This document shows, piece after piece, positions 1,021 to 64,000 of a stretch of 64,000 bases of DNA (its first letter is position 1; the number at the start of each line of letters is the position of its first letter). The notes beneath the pieces are model-generated. The model searched no databases and was not told the DNA's origin. It saw only the letters and a list, made by a program, of their open reading frames with translations. The stretch lies in NCBI GenBank assembly GCA_963848965.1, contig CAWKFG010000001.1, positions 160,001 to 224,000 of the forward strand, in the 5' to 3' direction. The position numbers were made by a program, and so were the translations under genes. The DNA is from an uncultured bacterium (GTDB lineage Bacteria > Babelota > Babeliae > Babelales > Babelaceae).

Positions 1021-2466
1021 ATGTTTAAAAAATATTATTTATTATCGCTGTTAAGTGTCTCGTATCTTTTTTCGATGGAACCGGCTTTAGTGTCTTCTGT
1101 TGATTTTAATAAAACGTATTTAGGAGTATTGCCACAAGAGTTGCTTTCTCAGATCGTTTTGTATGTAAGTATGCTACCACAGCTTAAAAGTTGCGTGATT
1201 GAGCCTCTTGATCATCAAATCCTTGTATCTCGTGTTACTGAAGAACAATTAAGAGCCAAGGCAGAAGAAACTTTTTCTGCATTTATCAAAAGTGTTCAAA
1301 CTCTTGGTGCTTTATTAAAGATGGATAAAAAGCATCTTGAAAGTGAAGGTATTCATAATACTTTTTTAGATGTTCTTTCAGAACATCTTCAGCAGTACGA
1401 AATAAAGCTTATTGCTGAGTTCTTTAGAAAAACAGACGCAGGTTCTATGCTTGCACCAGCGCTCATCTCAGCAGATAAACATAAGGTTTTAGAATCTGTA
1501 GAGCAGTTGAATCAAGCTCTTGATAATTATTTAGAAAAGCATTCTGTGCTTTCTACATACCTTCCAAGAGAGGAGATCTTGAAGATAGATGCTGAGGATA
1601 ATACGATAAAAGATCTTTTCTTGCAGTTTCAAACTTTCCTTCTAGACCGTGCTGATGTTGGTTCACACGTATCAATCATGGCGATGAGATCATTACTAAG
1701 TAATGCTGATCTTACTATGCCATTAGACTCTGCTGGTATTTTATCAGATTTTAGTGATGATGATATAATTTATCCTGATAAAGCAGCTTTAAAAGCAGCT
1801 CCACTCTATTATGCTTATGCCACCAAGTCTGCAGCAAATGTTTTTAAGAATATGTGCTATTCTTCGATTGAGGACCCGCTTGTAGAGTTACTTTATTTAA
1901 CACCCTTAGGAAGCAGATTTGATAAAATGTTTATTTCAGCGCTTTTAGCTACTCCGCAAGCGTTTAAATGGTTAAGAAAGTATTTAGCAAGTACTCCTAA
2001 AGCAGCAACCGACTGCTTGTGTCTTGCAGCAGCACTTGATAATAAAGAGCTTGCTCTTCTAGCTCTTGAGTGTGGAGCAGATAGTAATGGCTTTCAAAGT
2101 GTTTATTGCTTTAAAGGAACCTATCTTATAGCTTTGAGCAAAAATAAGAAACTAGCAACGTATATTACTAGATTTACTCCATTACACATTGCTGCTATTT
2201 GTGGTCATAAAGAGATAGTAGAAGTTTTATTACAAAAAGGTGCTCGTCTAGATGTGGCTGATAGCCAAGGAAGTACTGCTCTTACAGAAGCAATTATGCA
2301 TCGCAATAAAGAAATGGTTAAGTTCTTGCTTGAAGCTGGTGCAAGTCCTTCTTTTCAAACGCCAGGAGGTTTAGATCCTTTAGAAGTTGCTAAGCAAATA
2401 AGTAATACTAATGTTCGAGAAGAAATAATTGCGCTTTTGAAACACTATTTTGCTAAGGAGCTATAA
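1021..2466 (+). CDS. Secreted ankyrin-repeat protein with N-terminal F-box-like segment
   Basis: Signal peptide ...YLFS-ME; LGVLPQELLSQIVLY; C-terminal ankyrin repeats (TPLHIAA...GH.EIV..LL..GA). Start moved from 982 to MFKK. Confidence 0.85.
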   Translation: MFKKYYLLSLLSVSYLFSMEPALVSSVDFNKTYLGVLPQELLSQIVLYVSMLPQLKSCVIEPLDHQILVSRVTEEQLRAKAEETFSAFIKSVQTLGALLKMDKKHLESEGIHNTFLDVLSEHLQQYEIKLIAEFFRKTDAGSMLAPALISADKHKVLESVEQLNQALDNYLEKHSVLSTYLPREEILKIDAEDNTIKDLFLQFQTFLLDRADVGSHVSIMAMRSLLSNADLTMPLDSAGILSDFSDDDIIYPDKAALKAAPLYYAYATKSAANVFKNMCYSSIEDPLVELLYLTPLGSRFDKMFISALLATPQAFKWLRKYLASTPKAATDCLCLAAALDNKELALLALECGADSNGFQSVYCFKGTYLIALSKNKKLATYITRFTPLHIAAICGHKEIVEVLLQKGARLDVADSQGSTALTEAIMHRNKEMVKFLLEAGASPSFQTPGGLDPLEVAKQISNTNVREEIIALLKHYFAKEL

Positions 2467-2598
2467 AAAGGCACAGTGGCACATCTTGCTTAATTATAAA
2501 TATAAAAATGTACAATCAGGCAAGTTGCGCATTGTGTAAATGTCAAGATTGGTGTATCATTAAAAAAGCAGTGCTTCAAAAAACCTAAGGGAGGTCCC

Positions 2599-3639
2599 AT
2601 GAATCTTTTATGGCAGTTGGGAGTATTAGTATCACTAATGCTAGGGAGTCAACTCTTTGGAATGCAAGAAGAATTTAGGGAAGTGAGTCGTACTTATGGT
2701 CAATATATAGCAGAATTTGTCTCCCGGTTAACTCATGAGCAATATAAGCAGCTTGTCTTGCATCCTTATTTTTTTGATAATCCTTGTGAATTACTTGAAA
2801 GTACTTTTGTACAAGAGCTTACAGAAGAACAAAAGATGCTTTTTTTAAAAGTTGCTAGAGAATATAATTCAGATACGTGGTCTGATTTTAAGGAACTAGT
2901 ACTTAAAAATCTGTTTGCTTTTAGTGCATTAACTCCAGAAGCTTTAAAAGATCTTCAAATAAATCAAATAAGCGTTGAGCAATTTGATGCTCCTTGGAAC
3001 AAGAGAATACAAGAATTTATAAAGAATGATAAAAAAATAAAAGAATTTACATGGAACTTATTAGAAAGATCGTGGTGTCCCATTGATTCTCAAGATTTGT
3101 GCTCTTCAACACTATCACTATTTAAAGAAGATGAAATGGTAGAAGAGATACAAACGTCATTTCAAAACAAGCTTTCTCCTGGATGGTGGCAGTGGACATG
3201 GCAAAAGTGTAGTGCAGTAAAAGAATGGTGGTACAGTGACCAATCCGAGCTTAGAGATCAACAGTGGCTTATAAAGTTTGGCTCTCTGTTTTCTAAATTA
3301 AAACGAGAACAGCGTTGGTTTCTCATTGATATTATACAGATTTTGCAAGGATATAAAAATATTCTTCTTGATGATGCCTATAATAGTAAACTAATAACAG
3401 TTGCTCTTAGCATGTTTTCAAATCAAAGAGACTATCTTCGTGCTGTATGTTACTGGTATCTTGAGGCTTTTGTATTTCAGCGTCTTCTCGAGTATGGTTA
3501 TTGTAAACCTCATGAGCGGGAACTCTTTGCAAAGTCTTTTAAAGATAAGTTTGATGAGCATATAATGCATCTTAATGAGCAAGAACAAGCGAGAGCACAT
3601 AATATTAGAAGAGTTTGTAAAATTGTTTTGCTCTATTAA
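2599..3639 (+). CDS. Hypothetical secreted protein
   Basis: 346-aa ORF, strong SD GGAGG, signal peptide ...QLFG-MQ; no domain recognised. Confidence 0.75.
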   Translation: MNLLWQLGVLVSLMLGSQLFGMQEEFREVSRTYGQYIAEFVSRLTHEQYKQLVLHPYFFDNPCELLESTFVQELTEEQKMLFLKVAREYNSDTWSDFKELVLKNLFAFSALTPEALKDLQINQISVEQFDAPWNKRIQEFIKNDKKIKEFTWNLLERSWCPIDSQDLCSSTLSLFKEDEMVEEIQTSFQNKLSPGWWQWTWQKCSAVKEWWYSDQSELRDQQWLIKFGSLFSKLKREQRWFLIDIIQILQGYKNILLDDAYNSKLITVALSMFSNQRDYLRAVCYWYLEAFVFQRLLEYGYCKPHERELFAKSFKDKFDEHIMHLNEQEQARAHNIRRVCKIVLLY

Positions 3640-6047: not shown

Positions 6048-7142
6048 TTATGGCAGATATTTCTCTAACTTTGATTTGTTACAAGGGTTACCTACAGCTC
6101 TATACGGTGATGCAAAGAGTGTATTATCTTGTGGTGTATAATAAGCAAATGGTTGAAAATAGACTGAGATACGAAACCCTGGCGGTAATGAAAATGTAGA
6201 GATAACAGTTTCTAAGTCTTGCTTAAACGTGCTCAAGAGTGACTGTTCCTGTGGTACAAGATAATAAGTAAACTCTTTATTTGGTATAAAAAAGACAATA
6301 GAACACTCTTTTGCAGACGGATCATTAGTTAGCGTATCTTTAATAATGTTAGAGGCATAGTAGAGGCCCTCAAGGTATTGAAGAAGACGAAAGATGAGCG
6401 TAAAGTCAGCTGTAAGAAATGTTTGCCGAGCAAGTTTAGTACTTACTATGTCTAATAAAGGGGATGTATAGCCTAGATTTTGTAAAGAACAAGGAGCTCT
6501 TCCTTCGCGTCGTTGCGTTTTACATAAAAGATCGGCCTTATCAAGGATAAGCTCAAACAAAGAAAATTCTTCGGTCTTATTGGTAAGAGCTTTGAAAAAG
6601 TCCTGTGAAAAAAGAGGGCGATACCGTTTTTTAGTGCATGTAACTTTTGCTAAAACTTCTGAACGCTTTGTAGTCAGAGGACATTCTTCTTGCTTTAATT
6701 GCTCGTTATTGTCTAATTTTGCAATAAGTGCACTATAGTTTTGTGATAGTTGCTTTTTATCAATTGCAAGAAAACACCATGCTCGTAGATCGGTGAGCCA
6801 AAAGGTGGCTTGAGGAATTTTATTAAAAAGATTGGTGCTATACCAGAGTGCAGTAGAAGGCATGATACTACCAAAGTAGTTAGTAAACCATATGACAACC
6901 TGAGGATTGTTAAGAGCAGCTATAGTTGCAACTGCTTTTTCTAGTGGAAAGAGCTCTTTAAAGAGGGCAAACATTTGTGCTTGTGTCTCCTCATTTGCAG
7001 TCCGAGCACTTCTCAATTCTTCTAAATAAGGTTTAAGTTTATTAATACAAGGATCGTAAGCGACCGTTAAGGAACTTGGTTGTTCCATTGCTTGCATGAA
7101 TCCCCCTGTAAAGGATAGAAAGAGTAAAAGTAGCGTTTTCAT
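6048..7142 (-). CDS. Uncharacterised secreted protein, paralog of 4939-6003
   Basis: 364-aa ORF; signal peptide ...FMQA-ME; motifs shared with its neighbour. Confidence 0.8.
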   Translation of the reverse strand: MKTLLLLFLSFTGGFMQAMEQPSSLTVAYDPCINKLKPYLEELRSARTANEETQAQMFALFKELFPLEKAVATIAALNNPQVVIWFTNYFGSIMPSTALWYSTNLFNKIPQATFWLTDLRAWCFLAIDKKQLSQNYSALIAKLDNNEQLKQEECPLTTKRSEVLAKVTCTKKRYRPLFSQDFFKALTNKTEEFSLFELILDKADLLCKTQRREGRAPCSLQNLGYTSPLLDIVSTKLARQTFLTADFTLIFRLLQYLEGLYYASNIIKDTLTNDPSAKECSIVFFIPNKEFTYYLVPQEQSLLSTFKQDLETVISTFSLPPGFRISVYFQPFAYYTPQDNTLFASPYRAVGNPCNKSKLEKYLP

Positions 7143-7859: not shown

Positions 7860-8490
7860 TATATTTCCTTTCAAGAAGTTGACCAAATGCTGAAACTGCA
7901 CAGGTGAGTACAAGGTATATACCGGCAATGCTTAATGAGACACCAAGTGGGTTGAATGAACGATACATAATGTTCATGCTCATCTTAGTAAGCTCGAGTG
8001 TTCCTATGCTTGCAAGGATTGAAGTACTTTTCATAACCATAACGTATTCGCTTGTAAGTGCAGGAAGAGCAGCGCGAAACATTTGTGGTACTATGATATA
8101 GCGCAGTTGTTGCATGTTTGTGTATCCTAAAGCGTGAGCTGCTTGCCATTGTCCACGGGCAATGCTATTAAGTGTTCCTCGTATAATTTCAGAGACGTGT
8201 GCAGCTGAACAGAGGCCTAGAGTGATAACACCTGCAGTAAAAGGAGAGAATGTGATACTTGTAAGCTGTGGAAGTACAAAATAGACAAGCATAAGCTGAG
8301 CATACAGAGGTATTCCTCGTAAAAGCAGGGTTAGGATACCAAGCGGTACAGCAAGGGCTGCTGTGCGCAGCCAAGAGCAGCGCACAGTACCTATACCTAT
8401 TCCTATAACAAGACTTATTGCTGTTGAAACTATCCAAAGTTTACAGGTGGTGATAGTTCCTTGTACTAACAAGGGAATCCAAGCTGTCAT
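7831..8490 (-). CDS. Polar amino-acid ABC transporter permease (HisQ/GlnP-like)
   Basis: RGIPLYAQL, SAAHVSEIIRG...GQWQAAHALG EAA-loop; hydrophobic. Confidence 0.92.
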   Translation of the reverse strand: MTAWIPLLVQGTITTCKLWIVSTAISLVIGIGIGTVRCSWLRTAALAVPLGILTLLLRGIPLYAQLMLVYFVLPQLTSITFSPFTAGVITLGLCSAAHVSEIIRGTLNSIARGQWQAAHALGYTNMQQLRYIIVPQMFRAALPALTSEYVMVMKSTSILASIGTLELTKMSMNIMYRSFNPLGVSLSIAGIYLVLTCAVSAFGQLLERKYNVNRTKSFL

Positions 8491-9275
8491 TGTACCTCCT
8501 TAGAAAACCATTGCTTCTCTTTTTGTGCTAAGAAGCCCTCTTTTTTAAGATCGGCTATGATAGCTTCTATTTTAGAGATAAGTGCGGTATTCTCCTTGTT
8601 TATTCCTATCCCGCAGCCAAGGATTTTATACTTCTCACTAAGTGGTACAACTAGTGAAACAAGTTCTGGATACTTCTTTTTCAAACTTTGATAGAGTGCA
8701 GGTTCAAGTAATGTAGCAAGTGCTTTGCCATACTGAATCTCGAGGATAGATCCTAGAGGATCTACACGCTTAATTTCAAAGCCTTTAAAGCTTTCAAGAA
8801 TTGGCTCTTGGCTAGAACCAGGCTCAACGCATACAATAGCGCCAGGAATAGAAGAAAGATCTTCAAGCTTTTGTACTCCTGTAGGAATTGTTTTCCAGAA
8901 TATAAGCGGTAAAGAGGTAATAGGCTCTCCTTGGTAAGGAACCATGGCCATTTTGGCAAGCCGTTCAGAGGTGATATCAAGACCGGTCATAATAAAGTCT
9001 ACGGAGCCTTGTTGCAGTGCCTGAATAAGATAGGCGGTATCCATATCTTTTATGAGGAGCTTTTTATTGAGCCTTCGTGCAATCTCTTGAGCAACATCAA
9101 TATCGAAGCCTTCATAATTGCCTAGCTCATTCATACTTACATAGGGTGGCCATCCACTCATGGTGCCCATTACAATAGTTTTGCTTTTATCAACTTCAGC
9201 AGAGCTTTTATACAGTTGTAATCCAATAAACGTACACAGTGGTACTAAAGCTAGAAAATATATGTTTTTAAACAT
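8487..9275 (-). CDS. Polar amino-acid ABC transporter substrate-binding protein (family 3)
   Basis: GWPPY...GFDIDVAQEIA...ITSER; N-terminal signal; first gene of the operon. Confidence 0.92.
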   Translation of the reverse strand: MFKNIYFLALVPLCTFIGLQLYKSSAEVDKSKTIVMGTMSGWPPYVSMNELGNYEGFDIDVAQEIARRLNKKLLIKDMDTAYLIQALQQGSVDFIMTGLDITSERLAKMAMVPYQGEPITSLPLIFWKTIPTGVQKLEDLSSIPGAIVCVEPGSSQEPILESFKGFEIKRVDPLGSILEIQYGKALATLLEPALYQSLKKKYPELVSLVVPLSEKYKILGCGIGINKENTALISKIEAIIADLKKEGFLAQKEKQWFSKEVQ

Positions 9276-10812: not shown

Positions 10813-11421
10813 TTACTCTAACAAACGAATTACTGCATCATACTCGTCGTGCTCAAAGCTTGGGGCTTTCTCTTTTTCTTTGCGTGCAATATCTAAAGCT
10901 GTTTCACCGAACTTATTCTTAATTGTTTTATCAGTGCCACGTTTAAGAAGAATATTAACAGTTCCTTTACGGCCATATCCAGCAGCGGTCATTAAAGCAG
11001 TTCCACCAACTTTATTTTGTAAATTAGGTTGAGCGCCGTTATCTAACAGTAAAGAGATAACATCATCTTTTTCCCAAAGGCCAGAGGCGAGCATTAAAGG
11101 AGTGCTTCCTTGAGAATCGCGGATATTTACATCTGCTCCATGCTTTAAGAGAGAACGAATGATAGAAAGATATTCTTGATTCACCTCTTCACCAAGTGTG
11201 TTGAAATTATAAGCAAGAAAATGAAGAATATGAACACCTGGCGGATTATCCCATTTTTCATTAGGATTAGCTCCTGCTTCAAGAAGACGCTCAACTTTTT
11301 TGACATCTGGAAGACGTACAGCACGTATTAATGCCTCACGCGTTGTACTTTGCGCCTTTTCCATACTATAGAGGCTACAGAACGTACTTGCTACCGCAAA
11401 AAATAAAAAGATATTTTTCAT
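10813..11421 (-). CDS. Secreted ankyrin-repeat protein
   Basis: Likely start MKNIFL; signal ...SLYS-ME; about 4-5 ankyrin repeats. Confidence 0.88.
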   Translation of the reverse strand: MKNIFLFFAVASTFCSLYSMEKAQSTTREALIRAVRLPDVKKVERLLEAGANPNEKWDNPPGVHILHFLAYNFNTLGEEVNQEYLSIIRSLLKHGADVNIRDSQGSTPLMLASGLWEKDDVISLLLDNGAQPNLQNKVGGTALMTAAGYGRKGTVNILLKRGTDKTIKNKFGETALDIARKEKEKAPSFEHDEYDAVIRLLE

Positions 11422-14542: not shown

Positions 14543-15454
14543 TTAATCTCTATCATCTTCTATAATTGTAAATTCTTCATCTATATCATCTAAGTCTTGT
14601 AGGCTTCTAACGTTGACTTGCGCTCTATGTAATCTAAGAACATCGCGAGCAGCTCGTACTGTAGCTGGTACAAGAAGGCCTTTTTCTCTATAAGAAGTTT
14701 CGAGCTCGTTAATAGAGTCAAGTGCTGTCTGCCGTCTTGAATTGGTAGCATTTACATCTGCACCACACTCTATGAGGGTATTCATAAGCAGATAGACATC
14801 TCCTTCAGACTGTGCATAATCAACTATAGCAGCTAAAGGAATTCTTCCAAATTCATCTTCCCCATGCATATTTGCACCTTGATCTACCAAGAATGAGATA
14901 AGGGAAGCATCGTTTTTTTCTAGAGCTTTAAAAAGAAGATCAGTGAGTATATCTTGTTTGTCCTCTACTTTACCTTCTGCTTCTAATGTAGGGCGATAAG
15001 TGAGAAGAATAATAAAGTTTGTTTTATCTTCATTTTCTGCTGCAGCTTTATAGAGTGCTTCGTCATAATTAGTATAAGCACCGTGTGCAAGGAGTCTTTC
15101 AAGAACTTCTGGAGTTGCTCGTGTAGCAGCTGCTTCTAAGATGCTTCCATTCCAGTATTTATTGCCTCCTCTATCTACATCAGCACCATTTTCAAGAAGA
15201 AATTCAATGAGCTCATGATTGTTTGCATATACTGCAGCAAAAAGAGGGGTAAGATTAGCATCTTCGTAATTCCATTCTGCTCCTTTTTCTTCATATACAT
15301 TTGCTTCATTAACATCTGCTCCTGTTTCAACAAGAACTTGCGCAAAATCGATATCGTTTTCTTGTACTGCTCTATAAAGATCTGTTTTGGTAGCTAATGC
15401 AGCAGGACTCATGCTCAAAAGAAGAAAAAGTGGAAATAGTGTTTTTTTGTACAT
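14543..15454 (-). CDS. Secreted ankyrin-repeat protein
   Basis: Signal peptide ...PAALA; ankyrin repeats; acidic C-terminus. Confidence 0.85.
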   Translation of the reverse strand: MYKKTLFPLFLLLSMSPAALATKTDLYRAVQENDIDFAQVLVETGADVNEANVYEEKGAEWNYEDANLTPLFAAVYANNHELIEFLLENGADVDRGGNKYWNGSILEAAATRATPEVLERLLAHGAYTNYDEALYKAAAENEDKTNFIILLTYRPTLEAEGKVEDKQDILTDLLFKALEKNDASLISFLVDQGANMHGEDEFGRIPLAAIVDYAQSEGDVYLLMNTLIECGADVNATNSRRQTALDSINELETSYREKGLLVPATVRAARDVLRLHRAQVNVRSLQDLDDIDEEFTIIEDDRD

Positions 15455-40582: not shown

Positions 40583-41740
40583 TCAAAAGTTGGTTGATTG
40601 AGAATGTTTAGATGTTTGTTGGTGTTGTGAGAGCTGATATCTATAAGTAAAGGCTTTATGGCATTCTTTACAAATATAGGGCTTTTCTTTAGTATGTAAC
40701 CTCGTGTGTGCCTCTAAGCTAGTTTTATTAAGAAAGCCTGTCTTACACCCAGGGTAATTGCAAGGGTAGGGCAGTAGGGACTGGGATTTATACACTTGTC
40801 CATCGAAAACAGTGGACATTTCTTTAAAAGTATATGTGGAACATGGATTTTTCTTTAAAGGATATGTATTAGGTGTATTTGTAGATAATTTTGAATCTTG
40901 GGGATGTAGTTTTTGCTGATGTCTTTGTAATTGTTTTCTATGGCTAAATGAGTCGCCGCATTCTTTACAAACATAAGACTTTGTATCTGTATGGCCGTTT
41001 TTATGATCTTTTAAGCTAGCTTTTTGCATAAAAGATTTGGTACAACTAGGATAATCGCATTTATAAGGCTTTTCACCTGTATGCATGCTCTTATTCAATG
41101 AACCGTTATTATCAATGACTTGTTCGTTATCTGTTTGACCAACGATACCGTTAGTAAGTTTTTCATTTAGGCTGTCCCTATCATCTCGTAGGTCGAACTC
41201 AAATAGTAAGTTACCAGCGTTAGATATGTCTTTTTCTTTTCTGTTACCGAGATCTATGCTAGGGACTTCATCTTCATGAAGAAAAGAATAATGCTTTTTA
41301 AGATCTTCAGATGTTGAAAAAGCAAATGAACATAATTTACAGGTATAAGCGTATGTTTCTTTGGCAGAAAAAAGAGAGTAAATGATAGGAGGAGATAAAG
41401 GTGACACTGCTTCTTTGTTTGAGGTAATGTTAGTACTATCTTGTATATCCCATATTTGTTTATGAGATGAATAAAGAGGTTCATGCGTAACAGGACAATC
41501 ATTTGTATTGTTTAGTTCAAAGCTAAGATCGGGAGTATTTAAGGGTTGGTCAAGATTATCAATACTATTGAGTAAAAAAGAAATACTATTTTTATCTTTA
41601 AAAGAAGTATCTAGTTTATGACGTTTGAGAATATTATATGTGCTAGTATCAGATAATGGTCTTTTAGAAGATCCTTCTTGCATGCACTTAAGAGTACAAG
41701 AGAGAAAAAGTGTTGAAAGAAAGATAATTGCTTTTTTCAT
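40583..41740 (-). CDS. Secreted eukaryote-like C2H2 zinc-finger protein
   Basis: Five C-x2/4-C-x12-H-x3-5-H fingers; HTGEKPY and HTKEKPY linkers; signal ...TLKC-MQ. Confidence 0.92.
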   Translation of the reverse strand: MKKAIIFLSTLFLSCTLKCMQEGSSKRPLSDTSTYNILKRHKLDTSFKDKNSISFLLNSIDNLDQPLNTPDLSFELNNTNDCPVTHEPLYSSHKQIWDIQDSTNITSNKEAVSPLSPPIIYSLFSAKETYAYTCKLCSFAFSTSEDLKKHYSFLHEDEVPSIDLGNRKEKDISNAGNLLFEFDLRDDRDSLNEKLTNGIVGQTDNEQVIDNNGSLNKSMHTGEKPYKCDYPSCTKSFMQKASLKDHKNGHTDTKSYVCKECGDSFSHRKQLQRHQQKLHPQDSKLSTNTPNTYPLKKNPCSTYTFKEMSTVFDGQVYKSQSLLPYPCNYPGCKTGFLNKTSLEAHTRLHTKEKPYICKECHKAFTYRYQLSQHQQTSKHSQSTNF

Positions 41741-44554: not shown

Positions 44555-45346
44555 TTATTGACTTATAACAGGCGCTTTTACTGCAGCATTACGTAAAAGT
44601 TTAACAACTTCGGTATTGCCTTTCTCTTGAGCAAGAGCAAGAGCAGTTTTGCCAGATGGATCTGTTAAAGTAATATCGGCTCCTTTTGCTAGTAATAATG
44701 ATACTGCTTCTGGAAAATGGTGTATTGCAAAAGTTAAAGGAGTATATTGACTATAGCGTTGGTTAACATCTGCTCGTTGGTCAAGTAAATATTTTACTAT
44801 ATCTAAGTGATGCTGGTGCATTGCAGCGTAAAGAGGAGGAATGAGAGATGAAAAGTGCCCATTAATATCTGCACTCTGACTCAAAAGCTCTTTGATGGTA
44901 TTAAGATTGCCTTCATAGGCAGCTGCCATAAGTTTGCGATCTTGTTGTGCTCTTTTTTGTTGCTCATCAAGCCATGCTTTGGCATTAAGAGCTTGTGCTA
45001 TTTGTTCTCTTGTATGGTAGGTGATTAATGGTCCAGGTTGAAATGTTGGCGGAGCTCCAGGTGGTGGTGTTTGTGGCTCAGATGTATAAGGAAACTTTGT
45101 ATAAAGAGTTTCTATAAGGACCTTCATAAAATCAGCGTTGCTTTGAGGAAGTGGAAGTTTGTGTAGTCTTTTTAGAGCTTCATTTAATGTTTTTGCTGAA
45201 GTTATAATTTTTTCAACTCCTTGCCACATGCTGTGATGCGTAACTTCTTTAATAGGACTATCTTGAGCACTAGGTTCCATTGCTTGTGTATTAACACTAG
45301 TGATTAATGTATATAACGGTAAAATGAATATATATTTTTTTAACAT
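44555..45346 (-). CDS. Secreted ankyrin-repeat protein
   Basis: Start MLKKY (SD GAGG); signal ...NTQA-ME; Pro-rich insert PQTPPPGAPPTFQPGP; 4 ankyrin repeats. Confidence 0.85.
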   Translation of the reverse strand: MLKKYIFILPLYTLITSVNTQAMEPSAQDSPIKEVTHHSMWQGVEKIITSAKTLNEALKRLHKLPLPQSNADFMKVLIETLYTKFPYTSEPQTPPPGAPPTFQPGPLITYHTREQIAQALNAKAWLDEQQKRAQQDRKLMAAAYEGNLNTIKELLSQSADINGHFSSLIPPLYAAMHQHHLDIVKYLLDQRADVNQRYSQYTPLTFAIHHFPEAVSLLLAKGADITLTDPSGKTALALAQEKGNTEVVKLLRNAAVKAPVISQ

Positions 45347-45457
45347 AACAACCTCTTGATTTATTTCTATTATTAACATAATAATAAGGCTTTTTATTTC
45401 ATAATGTCAAGAGCTTAACAGAGAATAGTCTTTTAGAGCGGTGCTATAAGAAAATTA

Positions 45458-52694: not shown

Positions 52695-55304
52695 ATGAGA
52701 ACAAAAGTTTTAATAGTGTTTATAAGTATCTTCTGTTGTACTCCTCTTTTAACATATGGCATGAAAAGAAAAAGAGGAAAAAGTGAGCAGGTAAAGCATA
52801 GGTCTAAAAAAAGAAAAGCTTCTTCTCAAGAGTTATTGCTTATTGAGGCTGCTACTAAGGGTGATTTAGCTACGGTAAATAAACTACTTGCTTTAAATAG
52901 CGAACACACGTCTTCAATTGATATAAATGCTAAGGATAGCGACGGTTTTACTGCTTTGATGAAAGCTGCACGGCATAGTCGTATAGAAGTGGTAAAGGTT
53001 CTATTAGCAGCAAAAGCTAGTGTTAATAAGAAGAACGCAAAAGGTTCATCAGCATTACTCTATGCGGCTATAAGTAACAATCCTACTATAATAGACCTTC
53101 TTATTGAAGCAGGTGCTCACATTAACTATAAAAATAAAGACGAATGGACGCCTTTAATATATGCAGTTTATTATAACAACAAGGAGGCAGTTGAAAAACT
53201 ATTAAAAGCTAAAGCTTCCATTGACCTGACAGATTCAACTGAGATGACTGCTTTTATGTGGGCAGCAAAAAGAGGTCATAAGGAGCTTTTATATAAGTTG
53301 GTCAATGACCGTGATGATGTCAATAAAAAAGACCGTAATGGCGATACGGCCTTGCATCATGTAGCTCGTGCGGGCTTAGCGCATATGATTTCAGAACTTT
53401 TAAGCTGTGGCGCAGACATTGAAGCTAAAAATAATACTGGTGATACTCCGTTAATGGCTGCAGTAAAGGTAAACAAGCAGGAAGTTGTTCGTGAATTACT
53501 TGAAGAAGATGCAGATTTTGATGCTGTAGATAATAAGGGACATTCACTTTTATTTGTTGCTGCTCAATATGGGTTTACGACCATTGCGCAAGAGTTGCTA
53601 GAAATTGGAGCTGTAATCGATACAAAGGACTGTGAGGGTCATACACCTTTAATCATTGCTTCTTCTTGTGGACAAAAAGATATAGTTAAACTATTGCTAG
53701 ATGTTAGTGCTCAAAAAAATTTAACAGATAGTTCTAAAGCTACTGCAGCATACTGGGCTGCTTATCAGGGCCATAGTGAAATTGTCGCTCTTCTTGAGGT
53801 AAAGGATAATAATCCTAACATATTACTTGCTGCTGCAACGAATAATCATAAAGATTTGGTAAACAAGCTTTTAGAAAGAGGAACTGATATTAATGTGCAG
53901 GATGCAAAAGGCGATACTGCACTTATAGCTGCTTCAACAAAAGGAAATAGAGAATTTGTTCATGAATTAATAAGCAAAGGTGCCTCAATTGATATACAAA
54001 ATAAGAAAGGATCGACTGCTCTTTTTTGTTCTATTATGAATGGACATAAAGATACTGTTCAACTTCTATTACAGCATGGTGCGACTGTTAATATGCAGGA
54101 CCGAGAAAAAGCTACTCCTTTAATATATGCAGTTTATTATGGTAATGAGGAAATAACACAGATGCTTCTTCAAGCAGGTGCTGATATTGCAGTAAGGGAT
54201 ATTTATAATCGTTCAGCACTTTCTTATGCTATAGAAGAACAACATTCTAAAGTAGCTCAATTGTTTTTAGCCAAAGAACATGCTATTGCAGGGGATGCTG
54301 AACTGAGCACCTTGCTGTCAACTGCAGCGGTAATGGGTAACCAAGAACTTGTAATGATGCTTTTAGAAAAGGGCTTGCCAATACATGCGGTAAGTGAAGG
54401 TGGATCAACACTGTTAATGAAAGCAGTAAAAGGAAAGAACAGTGCTATTGTGGAAAAATTTCTCTCTTTAGGAGTACCTGTAAATACAAGAGACCAGAGA
54501 GGTAATACAGCCTTGGTATATGCTGCTATAAGCGGATCACCAGAAGTTTTTAGTCTTATTGCTAGTCGGGATGCTGATGCGAGCTCGCGACAAGGAGCTC
54601 TTACGAAAATTATAGAAAGTGGAAACTTCCAATTGCTCAGTAGGTATCTTCAAGTGTATCAATGTACAGATCTTGCTGCACGTTCTTTAGTACCAATTTT
54701 TGTTATAATGGATAAGCTTTCTTTTGAGGAGCTGACTGCTCCTAATAAAGAAGAACGACTTTTTAAGAAGAGGGAAAAAGAACATTATAATGAGCTTGTT
54801 TTACTCTGTAAGCTTGCTTTGCTTCCTCTCATAAGTGCTTATGCTCATGCACCAGAAAAAGTCGTTACAGAAGTACAAGATGGTATTTTTACGCGAGATG
54901 AATTTCATCAAACTTCACTTATACGAGCTAGTATATTTGGACATTTTTCTATAGTAGAGCAGTTACTTGCATGTAACTTACCATCAGACTATGTTAATGC
55001 TCAAGATAAGTTAGGGCGTACTGCATTGATGTACGCAGTACTTTATGGGTATGGAGACATTGTTCGGCTTCTGCTTCCTTATTGCAAAAAAGGTATTAAT
55101 CTTACTGATAACCAAGGAAATAGTGCTTTGTATTATGCTGCATCTCAAGGTAATGATAGAATAATAGAAGAGCTGTGGGATAAAGGAGCACGTCTTTCTA
55201 TTAAGGCTATTAAAGCGGTAGCAGAACAGGGCTCAGCTAAGGTGGCTACAATACTTCTTATTCTTATGAAAACAGGCACTAATCTTTTTGGTGGCAAAAG
55301 GTAA
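52695..55304 (+). CDS. Secreted ankyrin-repeat protein with bipartite NLS
   Basis: Signal ...LTYG-MKRKRGKSEQVKHRSKKRK; about 20 ankyrin repeats. Confidence 0.92.
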   Translation: MRTKVLIVFISIFCCTPLLTYGMKRKRGKSEQVKHRSKKRKASSQELLLIEAATKGDLATVNKLLALNSEHTSSIDINAKDSDGFTALMKAARHSRIEVVKVLLAAKASVNKKNAKGSSALLYAAISNNPTIIDLLIEAGAHINYKNKDEWTPLIYAVYYNNKEAVEKLLKAKASIDLTDSTEMTAFMWAAKRGHKELLYKLVNDRDDVNKKDRNGDTALHHVARAGLAHMISELLSCGADIEAKNNTGDTPLMAAVKVNKQEVVRELLEEDADFDAVDNKGHSLLFVAAQYGFTTIAQELLEIGAVIDTKDCEGHTPLIIASSCGQKDIVKLLLDVSAQKNLTDSSKATAAYWAAYQGHSEIVALLEVKDNNPNILLAAATNNHKDLVNKLLERGTDINVQDAKGDTALIAASTKGNREFVHELISKGASIDIQNKKGSTALFCSIMNGHKDTVQLLLQHGATVNMQDREKATPLIYAVYYGNEEITQMLLQAGADIAVRDIYNRSALSYAIEEQHSKVAQLFLAKEHAIAGDAELSTLLSTAAVMGNQELVMMLLEKGLPIHAVSEGGSTLLMKAVKGKNSAIVEKFLSLGVPVNTRDQRGNTALVYAAISGSPEVFSLIASRDADASSRQGALTKIIESGNFQLLSRYLQVYQCTDLAARSLVPIFVIMDKLSFEELTAPNKEERLFKKREKEHYNELVLLCKLALLPLISAYAHAPEKVVTEVQDGIFTRDEFHQTSLIRASIFGHFSIVEQLLACNLPSDYVNAQDKLGRTALMYAVLYGYGDIVRLLLPYCKKGINLTDNQGNSALYYAASQGNDRIIEELWDKGARLSIKAIKAVAEQGSAKVATILLILMKTGTNLFGGKR

Positions 55305-56686: not shown

Positions 56687-57961
56687 ATGTATAGAATTAT
56701 TGTAACTATGCTCTTATTAGCGTGTAGTAGCCTGTCTTTAACCATGAAGCGGGATAACAGCTGTGAAGGTGGAACGGCTCTGAAATTGAGAAAATCAGAA
56801 ACTGGTGAGCGCATTGCAGGTATTTCAACTACTACTCAAGACGGGCTCTATAGAGCATTAGAATTAGTAGTGCTCAATAATCAAGTAAACTCTTTAAAAA
56901 AGCTTCTTGAACGTGAAGTTGAGCAGAAAATTCTTAATAAATGTCTTGTTTTTGCCTGTCAAAGAGGTTTTAATGATATAGTATCAGTACTACTAGCTGC
57001 AGGAGCAGACCCAAACACATGTACTGAAAAAACAAGAATTCCTGTACTTCTGTTGGCTGCACAAGGTGGCCATACGCAGGTAGTATCATTACTTCTTGGC
57101 GCAGGTGCAGATAAGGATGCGACTAATGAGTATGAAGATACTGCGCTGCTAGTTGCAACAGAAAGCGGTTATAGTGACCTTGTTGCTCTTTTGATTGAAG
57201 CAAAAGCTTGCGTTGATAAGCAAAATTCACTCTATGATACTGCTCTTATGGTAGCTACAGCATGTGGTTACAAAGATATTGTTAAAATGCTCATTAGAGC
57301 AGGAGCTAATTGTGATCTCCGTAACTTCTGTGGGGAAACGGCTCTTACGCTTGCTGCAATAAATGAGCGTACAGAAATAGCAGCGTTGCTTGTTGGTGCA
57401 GGTGCAGATACTACAAGTGCTGATAATCAAGGAAAAATAGCATTACAGCATGCACGGGATAATGGTTGCAAAGATGTTATCCATCTTCTTACTTTGTGTA
57501 GAGATCTTGAAATGCAAGCGTATATAAGGAATCCTCAAGCATACTTCTCTTCTTCAAGTGTACATTATACTATACTTTTGTGGGCTAGCATGTGTGGACA
57601 CACTTTTATAATTGCACAACTCCTTGAGCTGCCTCATATAAAAGAGGTAGTAAGTGGGCAAGATGAACGTGGTTATACACCGCTTATGTATGCTCTTCTT
57701 TATGGGCACTATGATAGTGCATTGCTTCTTATCAAAGCAAGCTCTCAAGAAGGTATAAACCTTTGTAATAAGCAAGGTAAAAATGCGCTCTTTTATGCTA
57801 CAATAAAAGGGAATTTGAGGCTTGTTGGTGCACTTTTAGAAGCAGGAGCAGAAGCTTCCTATAATGAGGTCAAGCTTGCAGCCCATCAAAAATACTTACA
57901 AGTTATGGGACGTCTTCTTTTTGTAGTACATGAGGCTCAATTACCGGCACTTTTTAAGTAG
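56687..57961 (+). CDS. Secreted ankyrin-repeat protein
   Basis: Signal ...SLSLT-MKR...KLRK; ankyrin repeats. Confidence 0.9.
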   Translation: MYRIIVTMLLLACSSLSLTMKRDNSCEGGTALKLRKSETGERIAGISTTTQDGLYRALELVVLNNQVNSLKKLLEREVEQKILNKCLVFACQRGFNDIVSVLLAAGADPNTCTEKTRIPVLLLAAQGGHTQVVSLLLGAGADKDATNEYEDTALLVATESGYSDLVALLIEAKACVDKQNSLYDTALMVATACGYKDIVKMLIRAGANCDLRNFCGETALTLAAINERTEIAALLVGAGADTTSADNQGKIALQHARDNGCKDVIHLLTLCRDLEMQAYIRNPQAYFSSSSVHYTILLWASMCGHTFIIAQLLELPHIKEVVSGQDERGYTPLMYALLYGHYDSALLLIKASSQEGINLCNKQGKNALFYATIKGNLRLVGALLEAGAEASYNEVKLAAHQKYLQVMGRLLFVVHEAQLPALFK

Positions 57962-59027
57962 CATCTTCTTTTGGTTGTGGTACATATACAATACTATGCT
58001 TTTCTGGATGAGGAGAGATGCATGTCTCTAGAATAAGCTTTTGGCCATTACAGAGGTCTATTTCTAAAGGAATACTACAAGAAAGTTCTAGAAGGCGATT
58101 ATTAGTCAATATGAGTTTTTGTAAACATGTAAGTGTTGCAGTTACTTGAGGAATTTCTTCAAGCTTATTATAACTTAAGTCAAAGGCAGTAAGAGAGCTT
58201 GCAGGTAGAGCATTGAGCCCTAAAAAGCCAAATTCTTTTCGCGCTACATTATTATGTGATACGTCAAGGAGTCTCAGTGTGGTTATTGCGCTTAAACTTC
58301 TAGGTAGCATATCAAGTCTATTCTTTTTTAGGTATAAATCAGTGAGCTTTGTCAGGTTTCCTATCTCATCTGGTAAAGAAGTAAGCTTATTTTTCTTGAG
58401 GGCTAGTTTAAGTACATTAACGAGATATCCAAATTCGGATGGTAGCTTTTTAAGCTTATTGTTACTTATATCTAGAATGGTTAATGATGTCATATGGCTT
58501 ATTTGTAAAGGAAGTTTGTTTATACTGTTCTTGAAGATATAAAGTCCTTTTAGAGAAGGAAGGGTTATGTGAGGAGGAAATCTACTAAGTTGATTCTTTT
58601 CAATAGAAAGAGATGTGAAAGTAGTAGTTAAAGGAAGATGTCCTAGATCGCAATAAGGATTATCAGCTCCTAACTCATTGTTGCTCAAATTTAATGAAGC
58701 TAAGTATCTTAAACAAGTGATATTACTAGGAAATCGAGTAAGATGATTATGTCCTAAATTGATTATAAGAGGATTAAGGTCTTGTAGTTTGGTTACTTGT
58801 GAAAATCGAGTATCTGAATAAGTAAGTGAGTACAGATTGACGAGTGCATCATCACGTAAATTTTGACTCATAAGGTTAAGAGTATATTCTCCTGTTTTCT
58901 CATTATAGGCAATAAGATCCCTTTCATTCTCCGAGCCCGATGAAAATTCGTCTTCTTGTACGCGCTGTTTTTCCATACCAAGAGTAGGAGCCGATAGTAA
59001 AAGAAAAATAAAGAGTACTAGTATCAT
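57954..59027 (-). CDS. Secreted leucine-rich repeat protein
   Basis: About ten LxxLxLxxNxLxxLP repeats; signal ...PTLG-ME. Confidence 0.92.
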   Translation of the reverse strand: MILVLFIFLLLSAPTLGMEKQRVQEDEFSSGSENERDLIAYNEKTGEYTLNLMSQNLRDDALVNLYSLTYSDTRFSQVTKLQDLNPLIINLGHNHLTRFPSNITCLRYLASLNLSNNELGADNPYCDLGHLPLTTTFTSLSIEKNQLSRFPPHITLPSLKGLYIFKNSINKLPLQISHMTSLTILDISNNKLKKLPSEFGYLVNVLKLALKKNKLTSLPDEIGNLTKLTDLYLKKNRLDMLPRSLSAITTLRLLDVSHNNVARKEFGFLGLNALPASSLTAFDLSYNKLEEIPQVTATLTCLQKLILTNNRLLELSCSIPLEIDLCNGQKLILETCISPHPEKHSIVYVPQPKEDAT

Positions 59028-60489: not shown

Positions 60490-62868
60490 ATGAAAAAATA
60501 TGTAGTGCTTATTATGGCTCTCTTGTGTACAGGTCTTACTGAGGCTATGAAACGGCAGGAATATAAAGAAACTCAGGTTAAAAAGACCTCAAATAAGAAG
60601 ATGAAAAGTGAGCATACGTTATCTGAAACTGACGTAGCGCTTATGGTAGCTGCAGGTAAAGGAGATTTAGCTCAAGTTACTACGCTTCTTGCAGCAGGAG
60701 CTTATGTTAATGCTCGTGATATAGGTGGCGCTACTCCGTTACTGCATGCTGTTATCAGTAAAAATAGTGACGTTATAACGCAATCTACTATTATAAAGGC
60801 TCTTTTGAATGCTGGAGCAGATCCATCAATTAAAGATTTTTATGGCCATACGGCTCTTGAATTGGCAGCGCTTAGTAGACAATATCTGTTTGCCTTGGAG
60901 CTCCTGAGATTCCATGCTCCTGGTGGAGATGATTTTTTTCAAGTAGAAGGAAAAGATGGTTTTATAGCCGACGGGGTGTTTTGTCAAGCCCTTATCCTTA
61001 TGGCTAAGGATTTTCCTTTCTCAGCTCTTAAGAAACATATTGAAGAAGCTGTTCAGGTATTTAAACGTGATTCACAAGGAAATAAGAGACTAGCTAATTA
61101 TCTAGCGCTTGCTTTTACGCAAGTGACTAAAGATGCTTTTTTCTATCTCATTAAGATGGGAGCTCAAATTCCAGCTGAGTGGTTGTTACAGCAATCTACT
61201 AAAGAGAAGTTAACAAATTTCTTTTTAAGTGCAGCTTGTGACGGTAAGGTAAAAGTGTTAGAAAGTTGTGTTAAGGCTGGTATTCCCATTAACTATGTAC
61301 ACCTAGATACAGGATATACAGCGCTTATGTTTGCAGCAGAAAATGGTCATGCTGAAGCCGTTAAAGCTCTTATTAAGCTAGGAGCAGATATTACGTTACA
61401 TAATAATAAAGACCATGACGTGCTTTATGAAACAATTGATGCGCTCTTTAGTACTGAAGTTACCGGACGTATAGGTCATCATAAAGAAGTACTTCAGGTA
61501 CTTGTAAAAGCAGGAGCTGTATTTAGATCTTCAGAACGAGAAGGTGTAACTGCTGAACAGAAAAAGCGTAATGATACTATGACTAATGCTATTTTACAGG
61601 GAGATAAAGCTACTATTAAGAGACTTTTAGATGAAGGATTTGCTGATGATGAATCACTTTTAAGTTTTACTGCTTTTGGAGCAGGTTCTGGTCAGTGTGA
61701 ACCATTACTCCTTGCATGCCTTATGGGTAATGCTGACATAGTACAAGAGCTTTTGACTCATAGAGGAAACTTTGATTTTGAAGAAGATCTGTATTCATTT
61801 GATGAGCTCATAGATATTTTAGCAGCAAATGGTAATATAGAGGTAATTGAGCTTCTACTTAACTGGTATAATCAAAACAATGCAGAGAACATAACTATTT
61901 CAGAAGGAGCATTATACTATGCTCTTAGAAATAAGCATATTGAGCTTGTTAAAAAGTTGGCACCAAACTGCGCATGGGGTTCAAGACTGAATATACGAGA
62001 ACTTGCTATTCTTACAAAGCAAAAGAGTATTGTAAGGCAGCTTATTGAAGCAGGAGTGGATGTATGTCAACAATATAACTTCCATTACAGTGTTATAGCT
62101 AAAAATTTAGAAATAGTAGCGCTCCTTACCAAAGATGCTCTTGTTTGCAACTTACTTAACAAATTTTATGATGTAGACGAATTAACAGACACGCTAACAA
62201 ATAGTAAAGTATTCAAAAATGTCTTTTTAGGCGAAGGTTCTTTTGCTCCATTGCAACTTGCTCACCGAGTTCGTTCACCAGAACTTGTACACTTCTTGCA
62301 AGCATGTACTGATGAAAATTTGAAAGGCTATCTTCAAAATCCAGAAGCATATGCTAAAGGTTACCTAGCACAATGCTCTTCTTTACAAACAATAGTACAA
62401 AATAAATATGGCCAAACAGTACTTATGTGGGCATGTATATTTAATCATAAGAGTATAGTACAGCTTTTACTTAATCAGCTTCCTGTATGTTTGCATGCTG
62501 TTGATAGTTATGGAAGAACAGCACTTGTATATGCTATACAGTGTGGAAACACTGAGATAGTCTCTCTCTTGTTAGATGCTTACGAAAGAGAGAATAGTAA
62601 AAAAGCTTATGAAGATAAGCGAGTAAGCAGCATAAACAAGTTTGATAGAGAAGGTAATAATGCTCTTTGTTATGCGGTAATAAAGGGAGATCTTAGCTTC
62701 ATAGTACGCCTCTTAAGTGCCGGTGCTTGTCCTACAGCTCAAGCAATTAAACTTGCTGCAGAGCATGGTCACAAAGAATTAGCACTAAAACTTTTGGCTC
62801 TAATGAGTGAATATGCGCGAATTGCAAATCTTCCTATGAAAGGCCAAGAATTTCCTAAACTTTATTAA
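60490..62868 (+). CDS. Secreted ankyrin-repeat protein with NLS-like N-terminus
   Basis: Signal ...LTEA-MKRQEYKETQVKKTSNKKMK; ankyrin repeats. Confidence 0.9.
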   Translation: MKKYVVLIMALLCTGLTEAMKRQEYKETQVKKTSNKKMKSEHTLSETDVALMVAAGKGDLAQVTTLLAAGAYVNARDIGGATPLLHAVISKNSDVITQSTIIKALLNAGADPSIKDFYGHTALELAALSRQYLFALELLRFHAPGGDDFFQVEGKDGFIADGVFCQALILMAKDFPFSALKKHIEEAVQVFKRDSQGNKRLANYLALAFTQVTKDAFFYLIKMGAQIPAEWLLQQSTKEKLTNFFLSAACDGKVKVLESCVKAGIPINYVHLDTGYTALMFAAENGHAEAVKALIKLGADITLHNNKDHDVLYETIDALFSTEVTGRIGHHKEVLQVLVKAGAVFRSSEREGVTAEQKKRNDTMTNAILQGDKATIKRLLDEGFADDESLLSFTAFGAGSGQCEPLLLACLMGNADIVQELLTHRGNFDFEEDLYSFDELIDILAANGNIEVIELLLNWYNQNNAENITISEGALYYALRNKHIELVKKLAPNCAWGSRLNIRELAILTKQKSIVRQLIEAGVDVCQQYNFHYSVIAKNLEIVALLTKDALVCNLLNKFYDVDELTDTLTNSKVFKNVFLGEGSFAPLQLAHRVRSPELVHFLQACTDENLKGYLQNPEAYAKGYLAQCSSLQTIVQNKYGQTVLMWACIFNHKSIVQLLLNQLPVCLHAVDSYGRTALVYAIQCGNTEIVSLLLDAYERENSKKAYEDKRVSSINKFDREGNNALCYAVIKGDLSFIVRLLSAGACPTAQAIKLAAEHGHKELALKLLALMSEYARIANLPMKGQEFPKLY

Positions 62869-63223
62869 ATCTTAGATAAACAGTACGCGCCTGCTCAGAG
62901 AGTAGACGTGTCATTTTAATGGCCATTGGTGACCTTGTGTATCATAAAGACACGAATCCATTGCCATTCAAGTGCACGAAAGTAATATAAGAAGCTTCAT
63001 TTATGTATTATTGCATAAAGATAACATAGGCTTGAGTGATGTCATGGGCAGTGATTTCTAAAGGCTATGGTAGGATGTGCTTGGATAGTATCTTAAGATA
63101 AAGAGTATGGTAGGTTATAAGGAGTAAAATATAAAAAATATTTTTAATTGAAATTTTTTATATATCTGATATACTGTAATGCATGATTATATATCGGATA
63201 TTAAAGTTATTATAAGGATTAGT

Positions 63224-64000
63224 ATGAAAATAGTAGTTTTGTTTCTTTTGGTTGTACCTTTTAGCAGCCTTGTAGTGGCTATGAAAGATAAAGCTCACTT
63301 TGAAGAGCCTTCTGGCAAAAGGGTTAAGATTGAGCAACAGATAACGAATAAAGATAGAGCGCTTATGGCAGCGGCAGGTAAAGCAGATTTAAAAAAAGTA
63401 ACTGATTTGCTTCAAGCAGGAGCAAATGTTCTTGCTCGTGATGAATTTAGGGGTACTGCGCTTCTTAGTGCTGCTTATGCTGGTAATACTGCTGTTATAC
63501 AAGCTCTCATTAATGCAGGGGCTGATGTTAATGCTAAAGATATCTATGGGCATACTCCTTTAGAAGTGGCTGCAAGAAATAAGCATAATGATGCAGCCCT
63601 TGAACTTCTTAAAGCTCAAGCAAAGGGAAACTATGACTTTTTTCAGATAGAGTTTAGAGATGGTTTTGCAGCAGATAGGATCTTTGAAAGAGCTCTTTAT
63701 AGTGGAGATTCTCCTCATCATTCAACCGACTATATGCAACTTAAAAGTGCTTTAAAAAAGCATATTCAAGATATCGTTCAGAATTTTAAACAAGGTTCTG
63801 TTTGTAAAGAGGTTTTATCGCGCTATTTAGCTGTTACTATTCGTAGTAAGCATTGGTGGGCGACTTTATATTTGCTTGAAATGGGAGCTATCATTCCTAA
63901 TGAATATCTGTTAAACAATGATAGTAAAGCTTATCTTGAAAATTGTTTTTTACATGCGGCTACTCGTGGTAAAGCAAAAGCTTTAGAGAGCCTGATCAAA
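63224..64000 (+). CDS. Secreted ankyrin-repeat protein, paralog of 60490-62868, runs off the right edge
   Basis: Not in the ORF track. MKIVVLFLLVVPFSSLVVA-MKDKAHFEEPSGKRVK...ALMAAAGKADL...YGHTPLE...DFFQIEFRDGFAAD. Confidence 0.88.
   Translation, partial: MKIVVLFLLVVPFSSLVVAMKDKAHFEEPSGKRVKIEQQITNKDRALMAAAGKADLKKVTDLLQAGANVLARDEFRGTALLSAAYAGNTAVIQALINAGADVNAKDIYGHTPLEVAARNKHNDAALELLKAQAKGNYDFFQIEFRDGFAADRIFERALYSGDSPHHSTDYMQLKSALKKHIQDIVQNFKQGSVCKEVLSRYLAVTIRSKHWWATLYLLEMGAIIPNEYLLNNDSKAYLENCFLHAATRGKAKALESLIK

Follow-up and report, generated by a model that had tools for sequence, protein, structure and literature searches.

A methionine rule at the predicted signal-peptide cleavage site of presumed host-directed proteins in a genome of the Dependentiae

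The Dependentiae are widespread obligate parasites of protists, and the window analyzed here is a stretch of 64,000 nucleotides from the genome of one of them, an uncultured member of the Babelaceae (G000:C1:160001-224000, i.e., part of contig C1 of the genome we call G000). This source genome amounts to 1.73 Mb in 5 contigs, is 88.7% complete by marker genes, and has a G+C content of 34–38% by contig (~36% in the window); the genomes of relatives are ~1 Mb. Its contents are in keeping with this placement and include 162 ankyrin proteins and one TLC ATP/ADP transporter. Sixteen proteins encoded in the window share the N-terminal arrangement with which this study is concerned: a hydrophobic leader and then, at residue 18–23, a methionine that we call the junction Met. 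A sequence-only reading of the window had singled out these proteins, and all 16/16 translate as it listed them, with a small residue at position −1 relative to the Met.

What do these leaders carry, and where do they lie? Pfam matches identify ankyrin repeats in 10/16 (one of them together with a MYND domain), WD40, leucine-rich repeat (LRR) and C2H2 zinc-finger domains in one protein each, and no family in 3. The positions that follow span the leader plus junction Met, and a slash marks the predicted cut. Leaders of ankyrin proteins occupy 1021..1077 (+; LFS/ME; protein 1021-2466), 11362..11421 (−; LYS/ME; 10813-11421), 31379..31444 (+; LWS/ME; 31379-35056, 1225 aa), 40423..40488 (−; LQA/MV; 39694-40488), 42325..42387 (+; ISC/ME; the ankyrin–MYND protein 42325-44544), 45278..45346 (−; TQA/ME; 44555-45346), 52695..52763 (+; TYG/MKRKRG, a basic start resembling a nuclear localization signal; 52695-55304), 56687..56746 (+; SLT/MKR; 56687-57961), 60490..60549 (+; TEA/MKR; 60490-62868), and 63224..63283 (+; VVA/MK; 63224->64000, which runs past the window end). 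The WD40 protein (15934-18315) has its leader at 15934..15996 (+; SGC/ME), the C2H2 protein (40583-41740) at 41681..41740 (−; LKC/MQ), and the LRR protein (57954-59027) at 58974..59027 (−; TLG/ME). The remaining leaders belong to an MBL-like protein (23464-24984; leader 24925..24984, −, LVA/MK) and to two orphans, one at 6048-7142 (leader 7086..7142, −, MQA/ME) and one at 2599-3639 (leader 2599..2664, +, LFG/MQ), for which a homologue was searched in 20 relatives and none was found. The cargo named earlier was thus borne out for ankyrin, WD40, LRR, C2H2, and MYND, whereas BTB (in the WD40 protein; E 0.02–0.09) and MBL (E 0.003) reached sub-threshold matches only, and EndoU gave no match in the two window orphan proteins tested.

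Other exported proteins in the window had been proposed as an internal control, and they do serve as one: the solute-binding protein (SBP_bac_3; 8487..9275, −), with an ordinary leader ending in KSSA/EVD, and the macro, MutS_V, and HAD-like leaders are all without Met. An exception among the ankyrin proteins lies at 14543..15454 (−), where an ordinary leader ending in AALA/TKT has no Met. By eye, the window contains ~27 leader-bearing open reading frames (ORFs), and 16/27 carry the motif, which gives a binomial P of 7e-14 against the genome-wide control rate of 47/838 obtained as follows.

How common is this arrangement in the genome as a whole? Our own ORF caller returned 1472 ORFs of ≥80 aa in the source genome, and a loose leader test was applied to them; the resulting leader-like set (n = 838) takes in membrane proteins and some false leaders. 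We defined the Met class as leader-like ORFs with [AGSCT]-Met at residues 16–27 and used residues 36–47 as the control window. The motif is found in 321/838 leader-like N-termini against 47/838 in the control window (Fisher P 8e-64). Counted per position, residues 19–23 of 882 leader-like ORFs hold 63, 71, 72, 64, and 41 Mets; the background is 6–24 at residues 24–60 of the leader-like ORFs and 3–15 at residues 16–60 in 590 non-leader ORFs. We then restricted the set to clean leaders—K/R in residues 2–8, no later transmembrane segment, a Shine–Dalgarno (SD) motif or first start, and a cleavage score ≥6—which left 376, and placed the cut with a crude −3/−1 rule that is blind to the +1 residue. 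The residue profile around these predicted sites has a strong Met excess at +1, in 143/376 (38%), with Leu the runner-up at 8%, and Gln and Cys in 16/376 and 13/376. Met is a rare +1 residue in well-studied bacteria. A Met excess such as the sequence-only reading had anticipated is present at these predicted sites, and the rule extends to ~1/5 of the ORFs of this genome.

The Met-class junction has a characteristic profile. It is Ser-rich from −6 to −4, followed at −3 by Leu (39%), Val (18%), Ile (13%), Ala (10%), or Thr (10%), at −2 by Tyr (27%), Gln (16%), Phe (13%), or Leu (13%), and at −1 by Ala (50%), Gly (24%), or Ser (20%). After the Met, Glu predominates at +2 (59%; Gln 13%, Lys 9%, Asp 3%), Pro (20%) and Lys (19%) lead at +3 and Glu (20%) and Asp (13%) at +4, and beyond +4 there is no conserved position. 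In summary, a Ser-rich stretch is followed by [LVI]-[YFQ]-[AGS]/M-[E>Q,K], with a small residue at −1 in ~83% of Met-class cases; among ankyrin effectors, ~80–85% have Met at +1. Met-class leaders have a mean length of 20.0, an n-region net charge of +1.4, and a maximum 9-residue hydropathy of 2.6, and non-Met leaders match them in all three, so both classes should use the same Sec route. In its n-, h-, and c-regions, length of ~20, small −1, and aliphatic or small −3 residue, the leader is like a classical substrate of Sec and signal peptidase I (SPase I) under the von Heijne −3,−1 rule; what sets it apart is the +1 Met, present in 38% of the clean leaders, and the +2 Glu, present in 59%. The earlier reading had left it undecided whether cleavage places the Met at +1 or +2, and from this profile we infer +1.

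Is the junction Met perhaps simply the place where translation begins? The internal Met would then be the true start, and the upstream hydrophobic stretch untranslated T-rich DNA that happens to be in frame; T-rich upstream DNA of AT-rich genomes does translate to Leu, Ile, and Phe. Yet SD motifs precede the first ATG in 77% of the 321 Met-class genes, and only 5% of the junction Mets (18% for in-frame ATGs in the gene body), while public gene calls use the upstream ATG in 4/5 window genes tested and the internal Met in 0/5. Leaders with K/R n-regions, −3/−1 residues, and a fixed length of ~20 also speak against such an artifact, which we regard as extremely improbable. The SD counts and the public gene calls together rule out the junction Met as a true or second SD-led start. 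Alternatively, the junction AUG could be a second, SD-independent start that gives each gene an exported and a leaderless cytoplasmic form. The Met codon is indeed conserved, the leader-coding stretch is U-rich, and the 23% of first ATGs without an SD motif indicate that SD-independent starts exist in this genome. Against this, SD motifs are rarer before the junction Met than before body ATGs, no nucleotide-level signal goes beyond the needs of the amino acids, no Sec-independent secretion system was found in the genome, and cytoplasmic copies of ~300 host-directed proteins would have no evident use; dual initiation of this kind seems very unlikely.

The junction is also unlike a typical N-terminus of this genome, as Glu follows the junction Met in 50% of the 321 genes and stands at residue 2 in 6% of 378 non-leader proteins. 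At the level of codons, synonymous use at −3, −2, −1, and +2 (Leu, Ile, Tyr, Phe, Ala, Glu, Gln, and Lys) is about the genome average, with Gly and Ser at −1 deviating somewhat, and the constraint therefore appears to act mainly on amino acids. A DNA or RNA signal at the junction (a recombination site, promoter, or structure) was rejected because of this average codon use and because no −10-like box lies at a useful distance.

Which proteins carry the junction Met? To a sample of 464 kb (G000:C1:1-464000, with genes crossing 20-kb locus borders left out) belong 85 Met-class proteins, 71 of them in addition to 14 already in the window Pfam set. Their domains are ankyrin (31), C2H2 (9), LRR (2), WD40-type (2), and MutS_V (2), with one each of DSP phosphatase, PAF-AH-like hydrolase, mitochondrial carrier, Pyr_redox_2, and DUF5122; 30 have no family, and 4 are likely false leaders (MurC-type ligase, EamA, MscS, and DUF1653). 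Of the 112 non-Met leader-like proteins, 111 were sent to Pfam, the one left out being the mis-started 11421 gene; many in this set are membrane or cytoplasmic false positives. Eukaryote-like proteins without Met comprise ankyrin (5), WD40 (4), MutS_V (2), DSP (2), and MYND (1). None of the 12 envelope proteins (SBP_bac_3, Peptidase_S41, Peptidase_M23, two HtrA-type proteases, GH3, Fe/Mn SOD, BatD, VWA, TPR, NAGPA, and Metallophos) has the Met, nor do the three secretins. As the sequence-only reading had expected, eukaryote-like cargo is enriched relative to housekeeping proteins: ankyrin, C2H2, and LRR proteins have Met in 42 cases and lack it in 5, envelope proteins in 0 and 12 (P 5.5e-9). 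The rule is confined to fast-evolving proteins that are eukaryote-like or orphan, the presumed host-directed effectors; housekeeping proteins of the envelope do not follow it.

Several individual genes deserve mention. A tandem array of nine small genes, all Met class, lies at L072:9097-17863 (−; G000:C1:233097-241863) and encodes eight C2H2 zinc-finger proteins, which have as many as 10 finger pairs, as well as one protein without a family. At L077:4701-5585 (−; G000:C1:328701-329585), a mitochondrial-carrier-family protein (PF00153, E 3.5e-25), that is, a eukaryote-type inner-membrane carrier, has a Sec leader and follows the Met rule, its leader ending in YSYA/MEKPQ. Hydrophobic leaders also occur on normally cytoplasmic proteins, including adenylate kinase, several MutS_V-domain proteins, a P-loop kinase, and a HAM1-like protein; such leader-bearing genes lie at L068:15564-16217 (−), window 37471-39528 (−), and L073:15910-16650 (+). 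In many ankyrin proteins, a stretch Y-L-x-x-L-P-x-E-L...I that looks F-box-like recurs 20–40 residues past the junction Met, as in window proteins 1021-2466 and 39694-40488 and many more genome-wide. Met-Lys starts after the leader are found in 31 Met-class proteins genome-wide, 20 of them with M-K-R, and in the window at 52695-52790, 60490-60580, and 56687-56780. In the M-K-R starts, a second basic cluster often follows 8–12 residues on (e.g., MKRKRGKSEQVKHRSKKRK), and the combination looks like a putative bipartite nuclear localization signal (NLS) at the extreme mature N-terminus. Away from the leaders, two IS110-family transposase ORFs of equal length and equal Pfam scores stand 10.6 kb apart, at L080:2059-3003 (−) and L080:12709-13653 (−). 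A search for sequencing runs, RNA included, that cover window 39600-45400 gave none.

The persistence of the Met among diverged proteins points to selection. Among 3704 homologous pairs of Met-class proteins, 3623 are <50% identical, and in these the identity is ~0.1–0.2—the random level—at each of the flanking positions from −15 to +20. The Met class takes in 127 of the 162 ankyrin proteins; inspection by eye adds at least 10 of the other 35, which carry the Met but are mis-started or outside the position window. Plain leaders occur in some 8 ankyrin proteins, and in two of these an Ile occupies the place that Met has in paralogues. In the MBL-like family, for which an orthologue search in 20 relatives returned one match, the leaders of the window gene, of a paralogue with 33% identity, and of the orthologue in G010 are unrelated to one another, yet each is followed by Met; this Met stays at the end of the leader even as the linker to the domain varies by ~10 residues. 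Because a neutral leftover would not persist while its flanks are randomized, these comparisons indicate that the Met is under purifying selection at the protein level.

Where, then, did the Met come from? In some relatives, homologues of Met-class proteins are leaderless, and their first residue coincides with the junction Met or falls a few residues downstream of it; examples are a lipase-like and a HAM1-like protein in G002 and a P-loop kinase in G021. Given these homologues, and cargo domains whose types elsewhere are cytoplasmic or eukaryotic, the most plausible origin of the Met is a start codon: genes once without a leader would have acquired one by 5′ extension, and selection would then have retained the Met; leader gain or loss seems to be frequent in the phylum. 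The same observations, together with a weak MBL domain match that begins 5 residues past the Met, would fit a Met that is a neutral relic of such an extension, functionless now. That is improbable, since the Met is retained in ≥127/162 ankyrin proteins despite flanks of random identity, Glu follows it in 50–59% of cases as opposed to 6% at residue 2 of true N-termini, the residue at −1 is small in ~83%, and in the MBL-like family the Met tracks the cleavage site and not the domain start.

How widespread is the rule among relatives? The relatives were sampled directly, at 120–400 kb per genome; these samples are small and kin are not independent. Counting peak versus control Mets out of all leader-like ORFs, we found a clear peak in G002 (f1; 42 v 17 of 200), G010 (f1; 17 v 6 of 50), G004 (f1; 21 v 7 of 71), G021 (f10; 28 v 5 of 92), and G025 (f11; 29 v 3 of 107). 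The signal was weak in G003 (f1; 9 v 2 of 46), G056 (f5; 21 v 8 of 116), G055 (f14; 14 v 4 of 65), and G043 (f11; 10 v 4 of 96), and none was seen in G005 (f1; 6 v 3 of 66), G011 (f1; 9 v 11 of 99), G062 (f12; 2 v 5 of 55), G014 (f3; 2 v 2 of 40), or G057 (f14; 7 v 5 of 80). The preferred +2 residue also varies: Glu in G000, G002, G004, and G021, Gln in G010, and Asp in G025. Leader-bearing ankyrin proteins with and without Met number 13/3 in G002, 6/1 in G010, and 4/1 in G025. Across these relatives the enrichment is thus clear in five, weak in four, and unseen in five; the rule is clade-specific, present in some Dependentiae families and absent from others. A 25-column leader profile (A1), which scores at most ~150 candidates per genome, proved unreliable as a phylum-wide proxy; it gave 1 match in G025, where the direct 200-kb sample gave 29/107.

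Which enzymes might act at the junction? One PF10502 match in the source genome identifies a single LepB (C1:323737-324447), and of the Sec translocon SecY (PF00344) and YidC (PF02096) are present. About 2 kb downstream of the sole lepB gene is one of the two T2SSE/PilT-type ATPase genes (C1:326259-327401). LspA is also encoded (C4:355134-355538), and Lgt (PF01790) was not found in the source genome but was found in 60/60 other genomes of the phylum; as the assembly is 88.7% complete, its absence is probably an assembly gap. These enzymes bear on the possibility that L-x-[AGS]/M is a look-alike of the lipobox, cut by LspA, with the Met thioether in place of the lipid-modified Cys. The junction does recall a lipobox in its Leu at −3, its Gly, Ala, or Ser at −1, and its sulfur-containing +1 residue, and LspA is present where Lgt was not found. 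Met cannot, however, be lipid-modified by Lgt in place of Cys, and known LspA enzymes require diacylglyceryl-Cys; the −2 residue is aromatic or Gln, unlike lipoboxes, the cargo consists of soluble repeat proteins, and Lgt is phylum-wide (LspA was checked in G000 only) whereas the rule is patchy. We hold this route to be highly improbable, and LspA acting without Lgt was discarded because Lgt is missing in G000 only and present in the 60/60 relatives. A pyroglutamate route, in which the Met is removed and Glu or Gln cyclized, was likewise dismissed: glutaminyl cyclases of both types (PF05096 and PF04389) had no match in the 88.7%-complete source genome, and its two M24 peptidases are both without a leader and hence unexported.

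The sequence-only reading had gone further and proposed a two-step export tag, with Sec followed by a step that reads the mature N-terminus, and/or a host-like N-terminus for the effector. In the first version, the exposed Met-Glu would be recognized by a lineage-specific receptor in the periplasm, the outer membrane, or the host-facing membrane, which would carry ~300 folded, eukaryote-like proteins out of the periplasm, through the outer membrane or on into the protist cell; the logic is that of the PEXEL or RxLR motifs of eukaryotic parasites, or of the Bacteroidetes lipoprotein export signal. Such a tag would suit the class specificity of the rule (42/5 vs 0/12), the sharp M-E preference with Glu far above Asp, and the selection on Met. 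It would also suit the secretion systems of the genome, in which Sec and a type II or type IV-pilus-like apparatus (three secretins and two T2SSE ATPases) are the only ones found; VirB4 and FHIPEP, markers of type IV and type III systems, were searched in the source genome, and neither was found. A co-occurring apparatus that resembles a type II or pilus machine, as the earlier reading had suggested, is thus present, but across 14 genomes the number of secretins (2 or 3) shows no relation to the rule. A candidate for the reader was not found, the source genome has one LepB, rule-minus lineages have cargo of like type on plain leaders, and paralogues with the same leader carry K-K for M-E. We therefore consider a second-step tag, and a reader of this kind, unlikely. 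If true, bacteria would have their own equivalent of PEXEL-type export, assembled from Sec and a type II-like apparatus alone.

On balance, the interpretation we think probable is a simpler one: that these are ordinary Sec/SPase I leaders cut just before a selected Met, so that host-directed proteins then start with Met-Glu. With its basic n-region, hydrophobic h-region, and Ser-rich c-region, the leader would direct export through Sec; the single LepB would most likely cut between the small residue and the conserved Met; and the mature protein would start with Met-Glu or, less often, Met-Gln or Met-Lys. The Met would then be kept through some property of the mature N-terminus. Of the earlier interpretation, this retains the Sec-type leaders, the Met at the cut predicted by the −3/−1 rule, the lack of an SD-led start, selection at the protein level, and effector-like cargo; it does not extend to the second export step or N-terminus reader, for which one LepB, untied secretin numbers, and Met-less sister cargo offer no support.

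What might that property be? One possibility, which we put forward tentatively, is a host-like N-terminus that is no degron and resists methionine aminopeptidase, on proteins that work in the cytosol or nucleus of the host. Residues at +2 that permit Met removal are rare (Ser 3%, Thr 1%, other small residues each ≤1%), as is the Met-hydrophobic degron type (Val, 1%). Because of this rarity, because of the NLS-like mature starts, and because host range would explain the patchiness of the rule, we lean slightly toward the host-side explanation over the second-step tag.

Several observations weigh against the interpretation of a Met selected at the cut. Met-Asp should suit NatB as well as Met-Glu does, yet Asp accounts for only 3% of the +2 residues, and N-terminal acetyltransferases act mostly cotranslationally, which weakens the idea that NatB is involved. 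Three neighboring DSP-phosphatase paralogues (L083:14808-15428, 15790-16413, and 16740-17351, all +) share one leader type (ending LSPVVA or LSPVIA); after it, one has M-E and the other two K-K or K-Q, so that Met and Lys are naturally exchanged at +1. No Met peak was seen in the samples of G005 and G011, both of which are in the source genome's own family. Leader-bearing ankyrin proteins with and without Met number 2/15 in G056, 2/9 in G057, and 1/4 in G055; since rule-minus lineages carry such proteins without it, the Met is not needed for the export of such cargo in general. These rule-minus ankyrin proteins are no richer in +1 residues that are stabilizing under the N-end rule (9/23 vs 53/111, P 0.5), a weak negative given the crude predictor. 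Finally, the crude cleavage rule seems to misplace some cuts, to judge by the Leu and Ile that it leaves at +1 in the non-Met class.

How does the rule compare with known export signals? The PEXEL/HT signals of Plasmodium and the RxLR signals of oomycetes belong to pathways of the eukaryotic endoplasmic reticulum that use dedicated aspartic proteases, and their motif is found ~15–30 residues past the leader; processing of the PEXEL motif, RxLxE/Q/D, leaves a mature x-E/Q/D. The resemblance lies in a short motif that comes after a signal peptide and in processing that sets the mature N-terminus of host-bound proteins. Unlike PEXEL, the motif in the source genome sits at the leader cut itself, has no conserved position past +4, and has no known second protease or translocon. 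It also differs from type IV prepilin leaders, which are short and basic, are cut after Gly, and have their hydrophobic stretch, with Glu at +5, behind the cut; here that stretch lies ahead of the Met, and polar or charged residues follow.

A closer parallel may be the Q-rule of the Bacteroidetes, in which Gln stands at +1 of SPase I substrates and is cyclized to pyroglutamate (PMC5837995, PMC10653852). Both are lineage-specific residue rules that apply directly after the SPase I cut to a large share of exported proteins. They differ in that the residue here is Met and not Gln, in that the Met rule covers the effector class only and is not general, in that no glutaminyl cyclase was found in the source genome, and in its patchiness within the phylum. 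Within the Dependentiae, published genome descriptions report signal peptides on 79/126 ankyrin proteins of Babela massiliensis (PMC4378268) and on 44% of all coding sequences of Chromulinavorax destructans (PMC6561590), and these two organisms resemble the source genome in having many ankyrin proteins with signal peptides. A term search found no mention of a cleavage-site Met in the main texts of PMC4378268, PMC6561590, and PMC4776705, nor of methionine in the searchable text of PMC11495043, and in that of the Q-rule paper PMC5837995, neither methionine nor Dependentiae is mentioned. Among the papers on Dependentiae and signal peptides retrieved from 2019 onward, no title or abstract takes up the cut site. 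In the main text of the Dependentiae signal-peptide literature outside subscription journals, we found no published description of a Met rule.

The Met rule is a real, large, and selected variant of the Sec/SPase I signal, apparently unpublished, with a class-specific Met at +1 and Glu at +2. For annotation, it means that predictors trained on model bacteria may misplace cuts and that the internal ATG is a tempting false start. In rule-bearing lineages, a leader followed by [AGS]/M-[EQK] is a ready predictor of effectors, and the rule offers an experimental handle through point mutants at two residues. It would be the second case, after the Bacteroidetes Q-rule, of a lineage that imposes its own residue rule on the otherwise universal SPase I site.

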